DNA from: Phycisphaerae bacterium | GTDB lineage: Bacteria; Planctomycetota; Phycisphaerae; UBA1845 | Direction of reading: 5' to 3' | Assembly (NCBI GenBank): GCA_963666835.2 | Contig: CAXXGO010000006.1 | Span: 448,001-512,000, forward strand | DNA: 64,000 nucleotides | In this document: positions 5,078 to 47,947 of the stretch, one piece after another | Numbering within the stretch: the stretch's first letter is position 1 | How the letters are laid out: each line of letters begins with the position of its first letter | Program-made: the position numbers and the translations under genes | The notes under the pieces: model-generated | The model's input: only the letters and a program-made list of their open reading frames with translations | The model's database searches: none | Told to the model about the DNA's origin: nothing

Positions 5078-6625
<1,548 letters not shown>

Positions 6626-26314: not shown

Positions 26315-28189
26315 TCAGAAGTGACCCGGTGCGGCGGATTCTCCCTCCTCCGCGCGGTAGGCCGCGATGGCCTTCAAAAAGGCCTTTCCGAAGTCGGCGA
26401 GCTTCCTTTCCCCCACACCGCGGATACCCCGGAGATCGTCGAGTGACGTCGGATTGGACGCCGCCATTTCGCGGAGGGTCACGTCACCAAAGATGATGTA
26501 CGGCGGTACCCCTCGCTTGGCCGCCAGCTTGCGGCGGACACTGCGGAGGTGCTCGAACATCCCGCGATCCACACCTTCCCACGATACGCGGTCCGCTTTC
26601 GACTTGGTCACCGGCTTGGACGGCGGTTGCCGTAAGCGCACCGGACGCTCGCCGCGCATTACTTCCCAGGATGCCTCATTAAGCATGACCACCGGACGGT
26701 CCCCGGCCGTGCGGACTAGAAGACCGAGATCGATGAGCTGATACAGCATACTCGTCACCGCCCCGCGCGGCATATCATCGAGAATACCGTGGGTGCTCAG
26801 CTTGTCGTGTCCGCGCTGGCGGACCAGCTCCGGATTCGTCCCCAGCAGCACATCCACGACATAGCCCACCCCGTACCGCTCGCGCACCCGGGCGACGCCC
26901 GAGAGGATCTTCTGGGCGGTTACCGTAGCGTCGGACAGCCCCTCGATCTCGTCCAGGCAGACATCGCACGCCTGGCATGTTTCGCCATCGTACGGCTGGC
27001 CGAAATACTCGGACAAAAGCGCGTGTCGGCAGCGCAACGAGCTGCAGTAATCCCTCATGTGTTTGAGCAGCTCTAGTGCCGCTTCGAGGCACTCTTGGGG
27101 TTCCTTAGCTTCCATGGAGCTACGGCGGATGAGGGACTCCCATTTCAACGCCCCCGCCGCCGAGTAGAACAGAACGCACTCCGCTTCCAGTCCGTCGCGC
27201 CCGGCCCGCCCGGTCTCCTGCTGGTAATGCTCGACCGACTTTGGCATTGCCGCGTGCACCACGCAGCGGACGTTGCTGCGGTCGATCCCCATCCCGAAGG
27301 CCACCGTGGCCACGACCACATCGAGCCGCTCCTGTGCGAACGCATCCTGGGTTCGATGCCTTTGTTCGGAATCGAGTCCCGCATGATAGGCCTCGGCGGG
27401 CACGCCGTTGTCCTGCAGCCATAGCGCGATTCGTTCGGTGTCTTTGCGGCTGATGCAGTAGACGATCACCGCTTCACCTCGATGCCGGCGGACGACTTCC
27501 AGTATCTGCGCTTTCACCTTAACCGCGGGGACCACCCGGTAGACGAGATTCGCCCGGTCGAACCGCCCGACCAGGACGGTCGGATCTGTAAGCTGCAACT
27601 GGAGGGCAATATCGTCGCGCACTCTTTGAGTTGCGGTGGCCGTGTAAGCGTGGACCGAGGCCTGCGGGAACCGTTCTTTGAGCAACGCAAGTTGGCGATA
27701 CTCCGGCCGGAAGTCGTGACCCCAGTGGCTGATACAGTGGGCCTCGTCGATGGCGAACGCTCTGATGTCGGCCTGGGCGAGGGTATCCATGAACGGCGGA
27801 GACACCAGACGTTCCGGGGCAACGAACACCAGGCGGTACTGCCCGCGGGCGATACCGCCTTCCACCTCGCGTCGGGCGCCGGGGTCCATCCCGCCGTGAA
27901 TCGCCGCGGCCGGGTACCCGCATGCCTGCAGTCCGTCCACCTGGTCCTTCATCAACGATATGAGCGGTGACACCACAATGTCGGTCCGCTCCGCGATGAT
28001 CGGGGGGACCTGATAGCACAGCGACTTCCCCCCGCCGGTCGGCAGGACCACCACCGAGTCGTTCTGATTGATTCCCGCCCGGATCGCTTCTTCCTGCAGC
28101 GGGCGCAGGGACTCGAAGCCCCAATAATGCTTCACGACACGCGTGATCCGCTCAAGCGTCACGGGGGTTTCCGATTCGGAACGGTCCAT
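26315..28189 (-). CDS. recQ: ATP-dependent DNA helicase RecQ
   Basis: PTGGGKSLCYQ, DEAHCISHWGHDFRPEY, ATVAFGMGID, YQQETGRAGRDG, Zn/RQC cysteines and HRDC GVPPYIIF. Confidence 0.97.
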   Translation of the reverse strand: MDRSESETPVTLERITRVVKHYWGFESLRPLQEEAIRAGINQNDSVVVLPTGGGKSLCYQVPPIIAERTDIVVSPLISLMKDQVDGLQACGYPAAAIHGGMDPGARREVEGGIARGQYRLVFVAPERLVSPPFMDTLAQADIRAFAIDEAHCISHWGHDFRPEYRQLALLKERFPQASVHAYTATATQRVRDDIALQLQLTDPTVLVGRFDRANLVYRVVPAVKVKAQILEVVRRHRGEAVIVYCISRKDTERIALWLQDNGVPAEAYHAGLDSEQRHRTQDAFAQERLDVVVATVAFGMGIDRSNVRCVVHAAMPKSVEHYQQETGRAGRDGLEAECVLFYSAAGALKWESLIRRSSMEAKEPQECLEAALELLKHMRDYCSSLRCRHALLSEYFGQPYDGETCQACDVCLDEIEGLSDATVTAQKILSGVARVRERYGVGYVVDVLLGTNPELVRQRGHDKLSTHGILDDMPRGAVTSMLYQLIDLGLLVRTAGDRPVVMLNEASWEVMRGERPVRLRQPPSKPVTKSKADRVSWEGVDRGMFEHLRSVRRKLAAKRGVPPYIIFGDVTLREMAASNPTSLDDLRGIRGVGERKLADFGKAFLKAIAAYRAEEGESAAPGHF

Positions 28190-28257: not shown

Positions 28258-28403
28258 GTAGGGCACGGTCGAGGTACGAGACCTGCCGCTGGCCTTCGCG
28301 TAGCGCAGGCATCCTGCCTGCACTCGCGCGGGTGCCCGATCCATTCCGGCGTTTGCCGGGCCGGAACAGCCGCGCCGGTTCCCCGCCGGAATGGGTGGGG
28401 GGA
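28258..28403 (+). repeat. REP-A, a GTAGCGCAGGC REP, and the 5' half of the hairpin repeat interrupted by the intron
   Basis: REP-A at 28258-28287; 28326-28403 aligns to the reverse complement of about 47708-47780. Confidence 0.8.
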
Positions 28404-30328
28404 AAGCGCCGGTAAGCCGGTGAGGAGTAGTGGATGAGAGAGCCATACGGTGAAGGAATAGCGAACCACACCGACCCCGAGTCATACTGTGGTGTCCGCA
28501 AGGGCATGGCGGGAGCGTTGACAGGGGCACGTGCGGGCCGGCCATTGAGCCGTGAAAGCCTTTTACTCCGGAGTGCCGACGCCGTCCCCCAAGGCGGAAG
28601 GCAACACCGGAGGGCGTCGTTAACGCGAGACGCCTTTCGGACTCCGCGCGGTCTTAGAACCCGAGCACGCACGGAAACTCCTCACGCGGAACCCGGGAGA
28701 TCCCGCGTTCGGCCTCGAACATGGCATCGAGGTCCGCAGTGTGAATCCATAGGAGCACGACACTGATGCACGGGCGCGGGAAGTCGGACAGGCCCATAGT
28801 ACCGAAGAAGACTGCGAACAACGGTGATCCCCCGGCGGGGAGGTCGTCCGCGGAGCAGTTGGAGGAAAGGGGCCTGGCCAAGGGCAACTCGATTCGACAC
28901 GACAGGCACCGTACGCAGAGCCGGGATCGTCTGCAAAGCGGGTTGGATCGGGTACGACAGGCAGCGGTAAAGGATAAGGATTTACAGTTCACCACGCTTT
29001 GGCACCATGTCTATGATGTCGCTCGCCTCCGGGAGGCGTACTTGAGCCTCAAGCATGCTTCGGCACCGGGGATGGACGGCATGACATGGGAGGCGTACGG
29101 CAGGGACCTAGAAGAACACCTCTTGGATCTGTCGGCACGTCTACAGCGCGGAGCGTACCGAGCGAGGCCGGTCAAGCGGGTCTACATTCCGAAACCCGAT
29201 GGACGGCAGAGACCAATAGGGATTCCCGTGTTGGAAGACAAGATCGTCCAACGGGCGATGACCGATGTGCTCTCGGCTGTCTACGAGGCAGACTTCCTCG
29301 GGTTCTCCTACGGATTTCGACCAGGACGGGACGCCCATCAGGCGTTAAGTGCCCTGACTGTCGGCATCGAGAGGAAGAAGGTGAATTGGGTGCTGGATGC
29401 AGACATTCGTGGATTCTTCGATGCCATAGACCACGATTGGCTGATCAAGTTCGTCGAGCACCGGATCGCAGACCAGCGTGTCGTGCGTCACGTGAAGAAG
29501 TGGCTGAACGCCGGCGTGCTGGAGGACGGGTGTCGAAGGGACACGGAGACGGGGACGCCGCAGGGGGGCAGTATCAGCCCGCTATTGGCGAACATCTATC
29601 TCCATTACGCCTTCGACTTGTGGGCCCGCCAATGGCGACGGACGCAAGCTCACGGAGATGTGATTATCGTGAGATATGCGGACGACTTCGTGGTGGGATT
29701 TCAACAGCGAGAGGATGCCGAGCGGTTTCGGGATGAGCTGACGGATCGCCTCCGGAAGTTCAAGCTGGAGCTACATGCGGACAAGACTCGTCTGATTGAG
29801 TTCGGCCGTTTTGCGTCGACCAATCGCAAGCGAGAAGGCCGCGGCAAACCGGCGACCTTCGAGTTTCTGGGTTTTCGCCACATCTGTGGCAAGACCCGGC
29901 GTGGGAGGTTCACGGTACTACGGCAGACTGTCGCGAAACGACGGCGTGCGAAGCTCAAAGCGATTAAGCAAGAGCTTCGGCGACGTATGCATGCCCCCGT
30001 CCGAGAGGTGGGCGCGTATTTGCGGGCGGTGGTTCGCGGGTACTATCAGTATTATGCGGTACCGCGGAACTACCCGGCCTTAACGGCATTTCGGGATGAG
30101 GTTGTCCGTCTTTGGCGCTGGACGCTCCGGCGTCGCAGCGAGAAGACTCGGATTACCTGGGCCCGCATGAACCGTTTGGCCAAGCAGTGGATACCTGCTC
30201 CCAAAATCCTACATCCTTACCCCGACCGACACCTGGCCGTTATGACCCAAGGCAGGAGCCCAGTGCGGTAGTCCCGCACGCTGGGATCTGTGGAGGGGGT
30301 CCCGGGTAACCGGGATTCCTACTCCGAC
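28404..30328 (+). mobile_element. Full-length group IIB intron RNA
   Basis: Domain V GAGCCCAGTGCGGTAGTCCCGCACGCTGGGATC (AGC triad 30257-30259); domain VI with bulged A 30321, 8 nt from the terminal AC at 30328; EBS1 TCCCCC (28585-28590) in a CGCC/GGCG stem-loop pairs with exon GGGGGA (28398-28403). Confidence 0.93.
28766..30271 (+). CDS. ltrA: Group II intron reverse transcriptase/maturase, no endonuclease domain
   Basis: APGMDG, YIPKPDGRQRPIGIP, SYGFRPGR, DADIRGFFD, GTPQGGSISPLLANIYLH, RYADD, FEFLGF; ends after domain X with no HNH. Confidence 0.97.
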   Translation: MHGRGKSDRPIVPKKTANNGDPPAGRSSAEQLEERGLAKGNSIRHDRHRTQSRDRLQSGLDRVRQAAVKDKDLQFTTLWHHVYDVARLREAYLSLKHASAPGMDGMTWEAYGRDLEEHLLDLSARLQRGAYRARPVKRVYIPKPDGRQRPIGIPVLEDKIVQRAMTDVLSAVYEADFLGFSYGFRPGRDAHQALSALTVGIERKKVNWVLDADIRGFFDAIDHDWLIKFVEHRIADQRVVRHVKKWLNAGVLEDGCRRDTETGTPQGGSISPLLANIYLHYAFDLWARQWRRTQAHGDVIIVRYADDFVVGFQQREDAERFRDELTDRLRKFKLELHADKTRLIEFGRFASTNRKREGRGKPATFEFLGFRHICGKTRRGRFTVLRQTVAKRRRAKLKAIKQELRRRMHAPVREVGAYLRAVVRGYYQYYAVPRNYPALTAFRDEVVRLWRWTLRRRSEKTRITWARMNRLAKQWIPAPKILHPYPDRHLAVMTQGRSPVR

Positions 30329-30477
30329 ACGGATGAGGACCCGAGAAGCACTCGCGTTGGGCAATCGATTCCCCACCCTTCGCCTGATGCGTGGCGCGTA
30401 TCCGGCAACTGCGCCTATGTACGAAAGCTCTCCGTCTAATGCGACACAATCCAGGGCGAAGGACGGGGCACCCGCAA

Positions 30478-33400
30478 TCAGTCTTCACACGTCACGGGCC
30501 AGCAAGTTGGCCGGGCGCCCCAATCACCCGTTGCCTCCGCGGTGTCGACCGTTATTTCACCCAACGTACAAAGCTGGAACTCGGCATAGTCGCGCAGGTC
30601 TACGTCGCCGTCTGCGTCCATATCGGCTGGCGAGTCGGACGCAATACCAGGCCCCTCTAAGGCGTTCCACAGCACCGCAAAGTCAGCCAGATCGGCGCCG
30701 CCCTGGCCATCGAGGTCGCACATCGACTGTGCGGCGGCGATGCTCGCCAGCAGGTCCGCATGAAGCCGATGAAAATCCAGAATACTCATGCTGTCGTAGG
30801 CGTCGCCGCCGAACGGATCGAAGGCATACCCGGTGTGATCGCCGTACCGCTCGCTGAGCGCGCGAGCCACCCGCGTACGATTCCACCCTTCGCAGCCGGA
30901 CAGCACATTCAGATGCTCCGCAAGCTGGACCCCGTGCCGCATGCCCTTCAACCGGATCGTGGCAATACGCCCGTCGAACGATCCGTGCCCCGGCACGTTG
31001 TCGCCGGAGGGCAGCACGGCCAGCGCGTCGGCGTTGGCCCAATCCGTGTGGTAGTTGTCCCAATAGGGCAGGGCGCCGTCGAGGCCGTGCGACCAATGCC
31101 GTAGCGTATCGGCGCTATGCCCGGTGAGCGGATCGGTCGCGGCCGGTCCGGTTCCGTACCACCACCAGCTCTCGTCGATCGGCTCGGCGAAACGGCGATA
31201 GCGTGCCTGGCGGTAGTACCACTCGATATCGCCGCCCATCACCCGGAGGTCGCAGGTGCCACGCAACTGTCCCCAGTTCTGACCCCAGCGCGTACTCGTG
31301 TCGATTCGCCACTGCCAGTCGACGTCGGGCGCGTCCGCCGATTCCGCGCCTTGTTTAGCCAGATTCAGGAAGTAGGCCGTGGCTCGGAAATCGTCGGCCA
31401 CAGCGTGCTCCTCCAACGTCCAGAGGGAGATACACGGGTCGTAATAGTACTTGTTGTTCAAATACATCTGAAAGGCGGTATCGTGCCAGCCGCGGTCCTG
31501 AGCATACTCAGCAAACTCCCGCGCCACTTGGCGGTAGCCGGTTTCATATTCCGCGTCGAACGCGTCGAAAGCGTCCGGCATATCGTGCCAGGCCGTCGTG
31601 TCGTCACTATCAACCAGTCCGTTCCAGTAAGCCCATCCCGAACCGCTCGCGTCGAAGCCCCACACCGAGTCCGTCAAGCTGACCGGCCAGCCCTCGTGAA
31701 ATGCCGTGTAGAAGTCAGCGACGGGCGTGTTCTCGCCGGGCCCGTGATAGGGATACGTGGGGTGCGTAGGAGAGAATCCGGTCCCGTCTAAGAACGGTCC
31801 GTAATGGTCGGTGAACAGACTCCAGTCGTCTATTGTGGTCGATGCCCCGGTCCCACTCAGCACCGGAGCCCGGTCCTCGTTAACGCCGCCCGTCCAGCCG
31901 TAGGGCAACGTGTTGGGCACCGCCCGGTGCTTATGGCAAAGCTGAAAGACCTGATACCGCGAGCTTTCGCTGCTCCATTTATTGCCGTACCCGTTCAGAT
32001 CGAGCAAGAACGTCGACTTGTCCGGTATGGTGACCGGATGGACTCGAACCGTAAGGCTGATGTTCAACGGGTCGTCCAACTGATCGCAGTCGATGCTGAT
32101 CGTACCGGTATAGGTCCCGGCGTCGGCGGTGCGCGGCACGTAGAGATCCGCCCAGACACTCTGGCATACTCCGCCCGGGTTATTGACACTCGGGACGTCG
32201 AAGGTGCCGGCGAACGGCGCGGATAATGGGATCGCGGGGTCGGGATAATACACGCCGTCGTCGCTGACGTAGTGGAGTTTGAACAGCTCCAGATACTCCG
32301 CGGTCGGGATGGTCGCGCCGCCCGGCCCGACGAGATCGCTGCCGGCCACCGACACATTCGAAAGGCTCTCTGCCAAACGCTCGATGATCAACTGGAACGC
32401 GACCACTTCGTTCCTGCCGGCCGGCAGGTCAACCGTCGCGGTGGCGGAATCCCACACGGCGTTGGCCTTCTTGTAGTCGTCATTACCCGCGCCGGCGTAG
32501 CCGTCGCTCATCCGGTTGCCGGTCGCCGGGTTCACCTTCGCCAGATCGGAGCAGGCCCAGAGGCTGAGCACGCCCGACACCCCGAGGATCGGCTTGCCGG
32601 TCGGGTCCGGCACCGGGAAGCCGCCGTCGATCAGACTGGGGACGTCACTCGCTGCCGGCAAAGTCAAAACGGTGGAAACCACGTTCCCTCTATTGCCGGC
32701 CTTATCGTATGCTTGCACGAAGAAGTGGTATTCCTGCTGGGGATCCAAATGCTCGATGAACACCGTCTGGACAGTACCGGCATCAAGAGGCCGGGGAATG
32801 CGCCATCTATCGACCGGGATCGCCGCGGCGAAATCCGATCCGATGGAATAGCGCACGTCATACCCGAAAGCCCGGCCGTCCTCGGTATCTTCCGGGGCAG
32901 CAAAACTGAGCACGACTTCGCCGTCCCACTCGCCGGGGCTTGCCGTCAAACCCGCTACATCACCCGGGCCAGTGACATCGTCCTGTGTAGTCTTCAGATA
33001 AAGCCGCGGCTGCAGCGCGCTGCTTTGCTCGCTCGTATAGATGGAAGGATTGACCCAGGTGCGACCTCGCCCGTCGGTGATCGTCAGCCCGTATTGGTCC
33101 AACACCATCGCGTGGACCAGAGCCGGATCGAGCTTCATCGCAATCCAGGTCTGCCCGCCGTCGTCGTAGGTCTTGAACGTGCCGCCGTGCTTGCTGCTGA
33201 GCGTCGTAAGCGAGCCGAAGTTCCCGAAGCTGGCCGTGGTGAAGTCGCTGCCGGGGAAGGTCCACTCGACACTCTCTTCCGGGGAAGCGGCGTTGTAGGC
33301 GCGATATCGCCAGCACGGGTTCCCATCGACACCGTTACCGGTAGTGCCCTCATCCCAATCGGTGTTAATCGTGGCGGCGGCGAGGGCGAACACCTCCGAA

Positions 33401-35871
33401 CTCGGATTCGAGCGGGCGACGTGCAGCTCCGCGTGCGTAACGGTTTGTCCCGCATAGACGGACAGATCCCATTTGAGCAGCGCCGGGTCGTCGTGGTTCT
33501 TGATCCGCACCGTCGACGACGTGCCGCGGTTAATCAGCCACTCCGCCTGGTTACGAGGTCCGGCGTAAAACGCTAACCCCGTATCCTCCGTATTGAGCAC
33601 GACATCGACCTCAGGATCGTCCGGATCGAGCCACTCGGCGGGCGGCTCCTCGTCGAAACACTTGCCCTTGATCTCGTTTACTTTCTGAACGGTCAGCCAG
33701 CACCACAACAGATATCCCGAATGGCTCAGGGCCGCGCCGTTGTCGGTATAAGGACTGCTCGCCGCCGAATAGCCGCCGTGCGACGCGCTGGGGTGGACCC
33801 CATCTGAGCTGATCAACGTTCCGTCCCACGAGTCGTCCGGTCGGCGACGCACGATCTCTTCATACAAGTCGATCAACGGCAAGTGTCGGCTCTGCGCCAG
33901 ACTGCGCACGGCCGCGTTATAGTCCGCGACTGCCGACTCCCGATTCCGCCGCGGCGGCAGCGTCGTTAGCGCTACGACGGTGTTATTGACCTCCACACGA
34001 TCGACGATTGCCTCCAAATCGGCGATGAACGAGGCGGTCGGACGCGGTCCGCTGACGTCGTTCGTACCCAGCAGGATCACCACGATCTCGGCGTCGCGAT
34101 ATTGCTTGCCGTCGGGGTTCGTATCCCCCGCGGTGAACATCTGATCCGCGCTGGGCAACCCGCCCCAGCCGCTCAGCATGCCTTCGGTGGTGATCGAGCT
34201 GCGGGCGGTGTAGCTGCCGTTACGCCCCGGTACGTCCACCCGCGACAGGTACCACCCGTTGGGCGAGTTATTGTGGATTGGGTCGGGCCAGGTATCGCCG
34301 GAGTGCATCCAGTTGCAGATTGCCGCGTCGGATGCGGTCTTGCCCGAACCATACTGCGCCCACTGCCCACCCGGGTTGGCATACGTGATCGAATCGCCCA
34401 GCCGGACGACGAACCCGTGGGTTTGCACGGCCGGGTCCTTGCTGCCATAGAGTTCCCGCCCATGGGCGACCCAGCCGGTCGCTCCGTCCTCCCACGCGTC
34501 GTCGTATCCGCAGGCCAGGTCGAGGTCCGCATCCTGATCGCGCACGACCAACGTTACCGGGATGAACTGCGGCGAGTTCTCGGCCGCAGGATCGCTCACC
34601 TGAATCTGTGCCGTATGCGTGCCCCGAGCAACGCCGGTGTGGTCCACGTGAACCAATAGCGTGTCGCCATCGCTGCCCGTTGTATTACTGAGCGAAAGCC
34701 AGCCGACCGGCGCGTCAACGACCGAGGCCGTCCAGTTCAGCACGCCGAACGCCGGGTTATCAACGACCACCGGCATTGCGGCCGGGGGGGCGGCGCTGGG
34801 GGCGAGATCCATATTCAGTTCACTCGGGGCCAGCTCGATCTGAGGTGACCCGGACGCAAAGACTGTTAGATCGATCCATACGCTTGCCGGTGCGTTCGCC
34901 GCCGCGGCATCCGTGATGTCAATACGGCCGGAATACTCACCCGGTGTCATATCGGTGACATCTATGGTCACGTCGAAGGTGTCTCCGTTGCTGCCTGACG
35001 GATTGGCAAGCGTTATCCAGGGCACCTCCGGAGCTTCGGCCGCAGTCCACGAGAGCATGCCGCTACCCGCATTATTGACCGCTACGCTGTACGGCGGCGA
35101 TATCGGGTCTCCGCCGTGCATCATCAGAGTAAGCGTCGCCGGCGTCGGCGTGATCCACGGGGCCGTCTGCGGAGGCGGAGCAATTTCGACTCGAATGTCA
35201 ACCGAGCCGCCCCACTGGTCGTACCCGAAGACGTCGATGTCGCCGTCGGTCTTGCGGGATCCGACGAACAAGCCGTCCGCGCTCGGGTTACGCAGGTAGT
35301 GCATAATTAGCGACTCGGGAACGTCGATAACGACGTTCCAATAGTCGCGGCCCGCGTGCGGGTTCTCGGCGGAGGACTTCCAGATCGCCTGCCACTGTGA
35401 CGGGTTCGGTTCGAAGACTGCGGAGTCACCCGTGGCGACGCCGGCCAGGACGGCCGCCGCGAAGCTGCCGTAGTTCGTTGAGCCATATCGCCAGCTTCCG
35501 GCCCCGGCGTTGTAAGCGTAGGCTGAGAACCAGGAAAGCGTGCCCGGGTCGATATCCACCGACCCGGCTACCGGATCGAGATCCGCCGGAACAGGATCGT
35601 CCACCCACTCCACCTGCGAAACGATGACGCGCGCATCCCATCCGCCGTGTGTGGTCAGGACGTTGTCGACCTCACTTTCTATTGCTGCCGGATCGAACTC
35701 CGCGAAACTCGCCCCCGCCCCGGCTTGCGGCCACAGCTCTATGCTGGGATGCCAGGTGGCGTTCCAACCCCCGCGCCAGCCGGCAATGTGTTGCGGCGTG
35801 TGCTGAACGATTCCACCGAAAACAGATGTACAGCTTAGACAGACGAGAACAGACCAGAACGTGCGCATCAT
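30478..35871 (-). CDS. Large exported multidomain protein: BACON-like x2, SGNH hydrolase, DNRLRE-like, FN3, GH123/DUF4091-like, dockerin-like tail
   Basis: GGAGG RBS and signal peptide MMRTFW; NAGSGMLSWTA; LGDSIT...LGTND...DGVHP; ALLKWDLS; GRNEVVAFQLII and VWADLYVP; CDLDGQGGADLADF / ADMDADGDVDLRDY. Domain names are from motif recognition. Confidence 0.85.
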   Translation of the reverse strand: MMRTFWSVLVCLSCTSVFGGIVQHTPQHIAGWRGGWNATWHPSIELWPQAGAGASFAEFDPAAIESEVDNVLTTHGGWDARVIVSQVEWVDDPVPADLDPVAGSVDIDPGTLSWFSAYAYNAGAGSWRYGSTNYGSFAAAVLAGVATGDSAVFEPNPSQWQAIWKSSAENPHAGRDYWNVVIDVPESLIMHYLRNPSADGLFVGSRKTDGDIDVFGYDQWGGSVDIRVEIAPPPQTAPWITPTPATLTLMMHGGDPISPPYSVAVNNAGSGMLSWTAAEAPEVPWITLANPSGSNGDTFDVTIDVTDMTPGEYSGRIDITDAAAANAPASVWIDLTVFASGSPQIELAPSELNMDLAPSAAPPAAMPVVVDNPAFGVLNWTASVVDAPVGWLSLSNTTGSDGDTLLVHVDHTGVARGTHTAQIQVSDPAAENSPQFIPVTLVVRDQDADLDLACGYDDAWEDGATGWVAHGRELYGSKDPAVQTHGFVVRLGDSITYANPGGQWAQYGSGKTASDAAICNWMHSGDTWPDPIHNNSPNGWYLSRVDVPGRNGSYTARSSITTEGMLSGWGGLPSADQMFTAGDTNPDGKQYRDAEIVVILLGTNDVSGPRPTASFIADLEAIVDRVEVNNTVVALTTLPPRRNRESAVADYNAAVRSLAQSRHLPLIDLYEEIVRRRPDDSWDGTLISSDGVHPSASHGGYSAASSPYTDNGAALSHSGYLLWCWLTVQKVNEIKGKCFDEEPPAEWLDPDDPEVDVVLNTEDTGLAFYAGPRNQAEWLINRGTSSTVRIKNHDDPALLKWDLSVYAGQTVTHAELHVARSNPSSEVFALAAATINTDWDEGTTGNGVDGNPCWRYRAYNAASPEESVEWTFPGSDFTTASFGNFGSLTTLSSKHGGTFKTYDDGGQTWIAMKLDPALVHAMVLDQYGLTITDGRGRTWVNPSIYTSEQSSALQPRLYLKTTQDDVTGPGDVAGLTASPGEWDGEVVLSFAAPEDTEDGRAFGYDVRYSIGSDFAAAIPVDRWRIPRPLDAGTVQTVFIEHLDPQQEYHFFVQAYDKAGNRGNVVSTVLTLPAASDVPSLIDGGFPVPDPTGKPILGVSGVLSLWACSDLAKVNPATGNRMSDGYAGAGNDDYKKANAVWDSATATVDLPAGRNEVVAFQLIIERLAESLSNVSVAGSDLVGPGGATIPTAEYLELFKLHYVSDDGVYYPDPAIPLSAPFAGTFDVPSVNNPGGVCQSVWADLYVPRTADAGTYTGTISIDCDQLDDPLNISLTVRVHPVTIPDKSTFLLDLNGYGNKWSSESSRYQVFQLCHKHRAVPNTLPYGWTGGVNEDRAPVLSGTGASTTIDDWSLFTDHYGPFLDGTGFSPTHPTYPYHGPGENTPVADFYTAFHEGWPVSLTDSVWGFDASGSGWAYWNGLVDSDDTTAWHDMPDAFDAFDAEYETGYRQVAREFAEYAQDRGWHDTAFQMYLNNKYYYDPCISLWTLEEHAVADDFRATAYFLNLAKQGAESADAPDVDWQWRIDTSTRWGQNWGQLRGTCDLRVMGGDIEWYYRQARYRRFAEPIDESWWWYGTGPAATDPLTGHSADTLRHWSHGLDGALPYWDNYHTDWANADALAVLPSGDNVPGHGSFDGRIATIRLKGMRHGVQLAEHLNVLSGCEGWNRTRVARALSERYGDHTGYAFDPFGGDAYDSMSILDFHRLHADLLASIAAAQSMCDLDGQGGADLADFAVLWNALEGPGIASDSPADMDADGDVDLRDYAEFQLCTLGEITVDTAEATGDWGARPTCWPVTCED

Positions 35872-35963
35872 AACCACCCTCCGTGTTACCCCAGAAAAAG
35901 CCCCGACGGAATCAGCCCGAAGATCCCGCCGCCGATCATAATACCCGCGCGACATCGGTTTGT

Positions 35964-36578
35964 GTAGCGCAGGCATCCGGCCTGCAAAACGTCGCACGAC
36001 GCCGTCGGCATGGGCAGGGCAGCGTCGAGAGACGAGACCTGCCGCGACCTTCGCGCGACGCGCGCCACTGTGGCAGGTCTCGTTCCTCGACCATGCCCTA
36101 CTTGGCTGCCCAACGAGACCGCCCCGAAACCTTCACACGTGCTCGATGGTATGCCCCGAACGTACGCCGCAGGCGTTCAACAACAAAGCCCGGGGTCAAA
36201 CGAAGCGGCGCAGCCGCGGCGTTTCACCCTGGGTTACGGAACACCCTCCCAGACCAACCCTGAAATGGGTTGAACAACAGATCGTGTCCGAGGGCTGGCG
36301 CCCTCGGCTCAGATGCGCGACGCAGCTTTCTAGAGCGGGCTCATCCGTCGATGGTGCCACCTGAGTGTCAATTCGAGTCCCCCACCGCTGAAGCGATGGG
36401 CCACCCTACATCGTCGGTCTGTGTGGGGCAGGCCGAGGCACGAAACCTGCCGCAACGGTGCGCGACGCAGGCCCTTGTAGGGGTTTGAGTCACCCACCTC
36501 TGAGGAGGCAAGCCACCCGGACAGAGAGTTACGTCGGACGAAGACCGGCGGCAGGTCTCGTGCCTCGACGTGCCCTAC
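35964..36578. repeat. Mosaic REP cluster
   Basis: GTAGCGCAGGCATCCGGCCTGC near 35964; inverted REP-A pair about 36014-36101; AGCCCGGGG...CCCTGAAATGGG unit; REP-A pair about 36423 / 36550-36578. Confidence 0.8.
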
Positions 36579-47658: not shown

Positions 47659-47813
47659 GGGTGGGGAATCGATGGTGGAAGGTGGGTGCCTGTCGGATTC
47701 TCGTCCATTCCCCACCCATTCCGGCGGCGAATGGGGGCGGCTGTTCGAACCCAACAAACGCCGGTATGGGGCACCCGCGCCAAGTAGGGCACGGTCGAGG
47801 CACGAGACCTGCC
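47659..47813. repeat. Uninterrupted copy of the intron target repeat (47659-47780, minus strand) plus REP-A (47784-47813)
   Basis: The reverse complement aligns to 28326-28403 joined to 30329-30378. Confidence 0.85.
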
Positions 47814-47947
47814 GCAAAGACTGACGTTCTTCCCCCGAATCCACCCACGCCGCGCATAGGAAAAGGGGGGCGTTTGCCCCCCTCTCTGAGTCTTCTGCCC
47901 GACCAATGCCGGCCGGCATACTGTCGAAAGCGTCTGCGTACTGACGG

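Follow-up and report, generated by a model that had tools for sequence, protein, structure and literature searches.

A multi-copy bacterial group II intron beginning with G-AAA-GCG and the variable 5' ends of its relatives

The intron, its copies and their targets

The window analysed here, that is, the whole stretch of 64,000 nucleotides from a Phycisphaerae contig, carries a 16S rRNA gene at positions 5078-6622 and, between recQ (26315-28189, minus strand) and a large ORF ending at 30478, a hairpin-forming, REP-like intergenic repeat that is interrupted by a group II intron. The large ORF (30478-35997, minus strand) encodes a secreted-looking multidomain product of 1839 aa, in which an SGNH-like motif and a dockerin-like end were recognised by eye. 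In addition, another abundant family of short palindromic repeats adjoins the hairpin repeat at 28258-28289 and 47786-47815; it counts hundreds of copies genome-wide and is very deep in sequencing run X3.

As delimited by comparison with empty sites, the inserted element spans positions 28402 to 30328 on the plus strand (1927 nt) and starts with G-AAA-GCG. The 3' part of the repeat (28338-28401, the start coordinate being approximate) forms its 5' exon and the remainder (30329-30371) its 3' exon. Rfam detects group-II-D1D4-6 at 28437-28661 with 169 bits, and a domain V/VI model at 30254-30328 with 36.9 bits and E 4.6e-5, short of the gathering score (40). The element is a complete group II intron, and the original prediction was right that its catalytic parts are intact. 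Specifically, domain IV contains an RT/maturase ORF of 501 aa (28766-30271, YADD at 29675-29686; TIGR04416, 370.6 bits against a cut-off of 300), domain V (30256-30289) has the AGC triad at 30257-30259 and a 5-nt terminal loop, domain VI (30292-30325) has a bulged branch-point A30321, the eighth base from the 3' end, and the intron terminates with AC (30327-30328). No C-terminal endonuclease domain is evident in the sequence of the 501-aa protein.

The 5' end consists of the lead G-A-A-A (28402-28405), in which G1 is followed by AAA replacing the usual U2, with a net gain of 2 nt, and of a conserved GCG core (28406-28408) equivalent to nucleotides 3-5 of GUGCG. This core would form the epsilon/lambda anchor, and we take AGC at 28514-28516 to be its partner, from homology and general group II anatomy. 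In the register of the relatives, the Id3 loop comprises the delta U28585 and EBS1 CCCCCA (28586-28591), facing IBS1 TGGGGG (28396-28401) in the 5' exon. The putative alpha' CGUUA (28618-28622) sits in a terminal loop, an E/F-type placement, and is complementary, in this single sequence, to alpha UAGCG (28459-28463). The EBS3 U28654 is predicted to pair with A30329, the first base of the 3' exon (IBS3), and G28786 (gamma) of J2/3 (28786-28788) with the last intron base, C30328. In a set of 17 related introns that include both ends, the base of the EBS3 column could pair with the first base of the 3' exon in 14 introns, and that of the gamma column with the final base of the intron in 16; this covariation supports the 3' junction 30328/30329. 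Since these 17 introns were selected by a pattern requiring a branch A, retention of the branch A is judged below from another set. All three expected pairings, EBS1-IBS1 adjoining the 5' splice site, EBS3-IBS3 and gamma-gamma', are present, while the search for EBS2 in the first 299 nt gave no 6-nt match to exon positions -16 to -2, and the two 5-nt matches sit in stems.

The genome (6.02 Mb, 7 contigs) harbours 12 full-length copies that are 99.9-100% identical, differing by 0-2 substitutions and, in one copy, by a 1-nt insertion; the first 297 nt, used as query, are identical in all of them. Comparison of the genomic copies, proposed together with the original prediction, showed that 12/12 share the start and both junctions, the junction sequence being the same in diverged repeat copies. 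The intron targets a family of hairpin repeats, into which it inserts precisely behind TGGGGG and before A. The 1-nt insertion shifts the ORF frame of the copy at 23317-25245 of contig C1, and two 3' fragments of the intron, one of them only 95% identical, were found on contig C7 near 69128-69536 and 94469-94519. A second group II intron RT, 45% identical, is encoded at 1065660-1066925 of contig C6, with domains V and VI downstream and a 5' end that looks truncated.

A second, ORF-less element of about 670 nt (contig C6, about 259364-260034; L214) is 69% identical in domain I and resides in a different repeat family with 494 sites, the point of insertion lying between GAGACCTG and CCGC of the empty form. 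It also starts with GAAAGCG, with an EBS1 match of 6/6. A 5' fragment of an element of this type, on the minus strand of contig C1 near 352854, lies in the same second repeat family and starts with GAAAGCG. Such ORF-less elements are possibly mobilised in trans.

On contig C6, all 10 copies lie on the plus strand, against 17 plus and 31 minus empty sites (p = 1.6e-4). Because this contig shows hardly any GC skew in its first 1 Mb, where 8/10 copies lie, the reading of this bias in terms of replication forks is weak; the skew fits fork polarity only beyond 1 Mb, where the other 2/10 are found. In being endonuclease-less, in multi-copy homing into repeated targets and in strand-biased insertion, the intron resembles RmInt1 of class D. 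It differs in its class and in its hairpin-repeat targets, RmInt1 having a canonical start and targeting an IS. A preference for the lagging-strand template is described for RmInt1, and the bias on contig C6 is similar (PMC8914252), in line with what an endonuclease-less intron that exploits one strand at the fork should show.

Position of the 5' splice site

The original prediction had placed the intron start at 28404 (AAGCG), with the junction after 28403 and the loss of G1. The filled 5' flank, however, reads T, six G and three A before GCG, a run so ambiguous that the boundary must be set from empty sites. These sites, which are paralogues, were searched with the motif GGGT-G(n)-A(m) joined to any of the 3' exon starts that filled sites display; this gave 87 matches, 57 of them with at least four G. 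A junction after 28401 predicts the empty form G5-A, and one after 28403 predicts G6-AA: 50 of the 57 repeats are G5-A, 6 are G4-AA, one is G6-A and none is G6-AA. The start at 28404 had therefore been set 2 nt too far to the right, while the 3' side of the predicted junction pair, with an exon beginning at A30329, is correct. The empty copy at 47659-47780 (minus strand), a G4-AA variant mismatched at IBS1 position -1, had been cited in favour of 28403; in ungapped alignment it matches at 18/25 positions for a junction after 28401 versus 9/25 for 28403. Position 28402 is also the exact first base of the intron unitig of run X3, in which loose ends branch off behind 28401 and continue with ACGGA. 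An orthologous empty allele of the site is on no contig of the runs compared, four out of 12, the joints at 28401 being those of paralogous repeats. In relatives with non-G flanks, such as L007, L040, L131, L172 and L263, the GAAAGCG start is displayed directly.

The register of EBS1 leads to the same position. A pattern search for relatives gave 138 matches; after removal of 48 that did not have both an Id3 loop and a flank, 90 remained, 87 of them distinct. All 87 have a U (delta) as the fifth base behind the conserved GAC, although the pattern does not impose it. Taking EBS1 as the six bases after this U and sliding it over offsets 0-8, with ties broken towards offset 2, we obtained a pairing with IBS1 of at least 5/6 in 71 of the 87, while shuffled EBS1 sequences gave a mean of 7.1 and a maximum of 14. 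Applied here, the register of the canonical GUGCG relatives yields EBS1 CCCCCA against TGGGGG, and hence the lead GAAA. The complementarity of TCCCCC (28585-28590) to GGGGGA, on which the start at 28404 had been based, does exist; EBS1 pairs in two registers at this locus because of the G-run in the flank. As EBS1, however, TCCCCC would include the invariant delta U, and this register, one base 5', fails in the 38 canonical GT introns, which score at most 3.5 in it and 5-6 in the register of the relatives.

The letters A at 28404-28405 are real: they are identical in all 12 genomic copies, and no other letter is listed in the contigs of runs X3, X5 and X7 that cover the intron start (these three of the four runs compared belong to two studies, and the source is possibly included in one of them). 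In conclusion, the intron starts at G28402 with GAAAGCG, retaining G1 and replacing U2 by AAA; the stronger claim of an intron without G1 does not hold.

Starts across the clade and comparison with known introns

Among the 71 relatives with confidently mapped starts, 16 weaker-pairing rows of the 87 having been left out, the leads preceding the GCG core are GT in 38, GAAA in 15 (two of them from the genome of the window), GA in 11, GAT and GAG in two each, and GTA, GGAA and GTT in one each. The first base is G in 71/71, against a null fraction of 0.55, and 33 of the starts are non-GT. The four-nucleotide lead is GAAA or GGAA in 16/16 confident cases. A further 33 loci add GAAA (three), GAT (two), GAA (three copies in genome G534) and GT; two of these rows, one truncated and the other ambiguous, were called differently, and several lack an Id3 match. 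Outside the source genome, GAAA is thus seen in 13 distinct introns of the 71-row set and in the three among the further loci. Records of Planctomycetota, Verrucomicrobiota and Pseudomonadota are among the named carriers in the clade, and a GAGCG start is carried by cultured bacteria (Microvirga sp. VF16 and Pseudomonas veronii plasmids). The idea that GAAA was selected as a tetraloop, based on an apparent absence of GAA, is weakened by the GAA copies of G534.

On a tree of domains I-III (68 rows, 337 nt), from which the lead and EBS1 had been left out, 8 changes are required for GAAA, 6 of them forced by strong branches, and 10 for GA. Six or more changes for 8 GAAA rows are also forced by a quick RT tree, built independently from 81 proteins of which 42 have a lead label. 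When the 16 four-base leads were held as one clade on the RNA tree, a single origin was rejected (p-AU 4e-55). Near-identical sisters differ as GT/GA or as GAAA/GAG/GAT. Taken together, these phylogenies suggest that GAAA arose repeatedly, with at least 6 changes whose division into gains and losses is left unordered by trees of 337 nt and of a quick search. The original prediction of a lineage with an altered 5' splice site and added nucleotides is thus borne out as far as the 2 extra nt and their recurrence across a wide clade are concerned, but not as regards the loss of G1.

Some individual relatives deserve mention. L263 (genome G624, contig C41) is a 61-nt 5' fragment, 93% identical, whose GAAAGCG start follows a C within a member of the same hairpin-repeat family; a transposase-like sequence interrupts the fragment, and the empty repeat motif matches at 123 places in its genome. 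At L087, in a second match, an intron starting with GAGCG directly follows the 3' end of another intron in tandem. In L051 and L057, multi-copy relatives from a Bryobacterales MAG, the presumed start reads GAACAGCC, the GCG core itself being altered. The nearest named relatives of the RT are from Planctomycetota MAGs.

Nearly all group II introns share the 5' GUGYG consensus, but exceptions are known and it does not define the group strictly. The present intron departs from it, keeping G1 and the GCG core. The IIB label of the original prediction is acceptable in the broad sense, given the use of EBS3/IBS3, but the RNA has E/F-type features: alpha' in a terminal loop, an extra Id3 bulge and a 5-nt domain V loop, all listed for IIE/IIF introns (Nagy et al. 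2013, PMC3753933). Similarly to the class E/F introns Cl.be.I2, Pe.th.I2 and Ge.ur.I1 as described in PMC3753933 and PMC3552965, the element reads its exons through EBS1 and EBS3, is about 1.9 kb long and encodes an RT-X protein without an evident endonuclease domain. Unlike Ni.ha.I1 and Sr.me.I2, two references that begin with GTGCG and are listed in Table S2 of PMC3552965 (Toro and Martinez-Abarca 2013), it starts with GAAAGCG. Its RT is 33-34% identical to the proteins of these two references, those compared here for F/g3 and g1, respectively; judged by protein identity against one reference each, it belongs to neither g3 nor g1.

A displaced 5' splice site, further from the epsilon/lambda anchor, also characterises fungal mitochondrial rRNA IIB1 introns (Li et al. 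2011) and C.te.I1 of Clostridium tetani. As described in PMC4424553 and PMC4024640, those introns keep GUGYG with 1-33 nt before it, have lost the branch A and the RT, and are hydrolytic and non-retromobile. Here, by contrast, G1 comes first, the change is at position 2, no intact GUGYG is present but only GCG after GAAA, and the branch A, the RT and mobility are kept. Another bacterial intron with a non-GUGYG boundary is UHB.I2 (CL1; UUGCG..GU), which differs in having a single position-1 substitution and normal length, the consulted part of its account giving no evidence of mobility (PMC7923331). Boundary prediction is described as poor for classes E and F (PMC4028801), and the accessible part of PMC9294222 treats 3' but not 5' extensions. 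In the literature searched, which consisted mostly of open-access papers, we found no description of a GAAAGCG-type start.

Splicing, mobility and the role of position 2

The above data probably describe a recently active, endonuclease-less bacterial group II intron with E/F-type RNA and the 5' end G-AAA-GCG, which would splice by branching to G1. In this scheme, the EBS1-IBS1 pairing would set cleavage before G1, the maturase would dock domain VI, and A30321 would branch to G1 as usual, with the two additional A's bulging from the stretch that links G1 to the GCG (epsilon/lambda) anchor, and with an A contact taking the place of the base triple of U2 with domain VI, unless that triple is simply lost. 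Reverse splicing of the lariat into a single-stranded target would take place at the replication fork. Lariat splicing to G1 is suggested by the invariance of G1 while position 2 varies, by the precise 5' junctions and by the A found at the branch position in 7/7 GAAA introns with a 3' end, one of them an ORF-less copy with a degenerate stem; precise 5' junctions are described for lariat retrohoming, and mostly imprecise ones for the linear pathway (PMC3280974). In one RNA run, in which the intron is represented by a single identical contig of 244 nt at depth 2.2, the spliced joint is absent.

Other readings of the locus were weighed against branching to G1. With the same boundaries, the lengthened start could block branching, so that the intron would be excised by hydrolysis or circularisation and spread as linear RNA, through partial reverse splicing followed by RT template switching or end joining. 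Introns with nucleotides before GUGYG do splice by hydrolysis (PMC4424553, PMC4024640). In the parts of PMC3753933 consulted, three class E introns self-spliced in vitro without protein by hydrolysis only, and one class F intron circularises; the authors of that study note that a maturase may give branching. Against this pathway, which the original prediction had also entertained, we set the loss of both the branch A and the RT in the known hydrolytic cases, both of which are kept here together with an intact domain VI, the exactness of 12/12 junctions, where linear retrohoming leaves mostly ragged 5' ends, and the constancy of G1 beside a variable position 2. We thus do not favour it and rate it as rather unlikely.

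Much less credible is that the start represents a damaging lesion or an assembly error, the copies being artefacts or having been mobilised in trans by another intron. The second intron RT of this genome and the frameshifted copy on contig C1 would fit such a scenario, and a two-base lesion acquired during retrohoming had been among the original explanations. Nevertheless, the start is present in the RNA of each copy, which must have gone through splicing and reverse splicing with it, the letters are the same in other runs, and GAAA recurs in introns of other genomes. Because 12 near-identical copies share the start and the junctions, the start was inherited through transposition and is no one-off lesion; the second element, with its unrelated target, shares it as well, which refutes a dead-end lesion. 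As to an intron beginning at 28404 without G1, we give it next to no weight: in spite of the perfect 6-bp match of TCCCCC to GGGGGA, it is refuted at the DNA level by the empty sites and the EBS1 register, and is at odds with the relatives whose flanks lack G.

In the clade as a whole, position 2 would have drifted from U to A and then gained 1-2 bases, several times independently, along the series GT, GA, GAA/GAT/GAG/GTA/GTT and GAAA/GGAA; slippage in the A-run is the likely source of GAA and GAAA. A IIC structure indicates that the U2 base triple helps to dock domain VI (PMC10733145). We see about an even chance that this widespread retromobile clade has freed position 2 and the spacing between G1 and epsilon, with G1 as the branch acceptor and 1-3 variable bases, gained many times, before the GCG anchor; the four-nucleotide form may fold in a GNRA-like manner and replace the contact of U2 with domain VI. 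No compensating change is visible in domain VI of the 17 related introns that include both ends. Mutual information in domain I peaks at 0.31, where shuffling gives a 95% maximum of 0.23, but the highest-scoring columns are stem positions that track relatedness and none is diagnostic; for GA versus GT, nothing in domain I rises above the null.

In conclusion, the genomic sequences reveal a recently mobile intron with a non-canonical, G-initiated start, within a clade that appears to have changed position 2 and the length of the start repeatedly. As 33 of the 71 mapped starts are non-GT, boundary prediction based on GUGYG will overlook, or assign a wrong start to, a large part of this clade. 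Twelve fresh copies, together with the natural series GU, GA, GAA and GAAA, separate the positions from each other, G1 being fixed while U2 and the spacing are not, and the role of U2 becomes directly testable through this series. It has been suggested that mobile introns may need IBS1 adjacent to GUGYG (PMC4024640). If position 2 and the spacing have indeed been freed, the clade would constitute an exception to this proposal and, in addition, a natural exception to the 5'-GU rule that group II introns share with the spliceosome.
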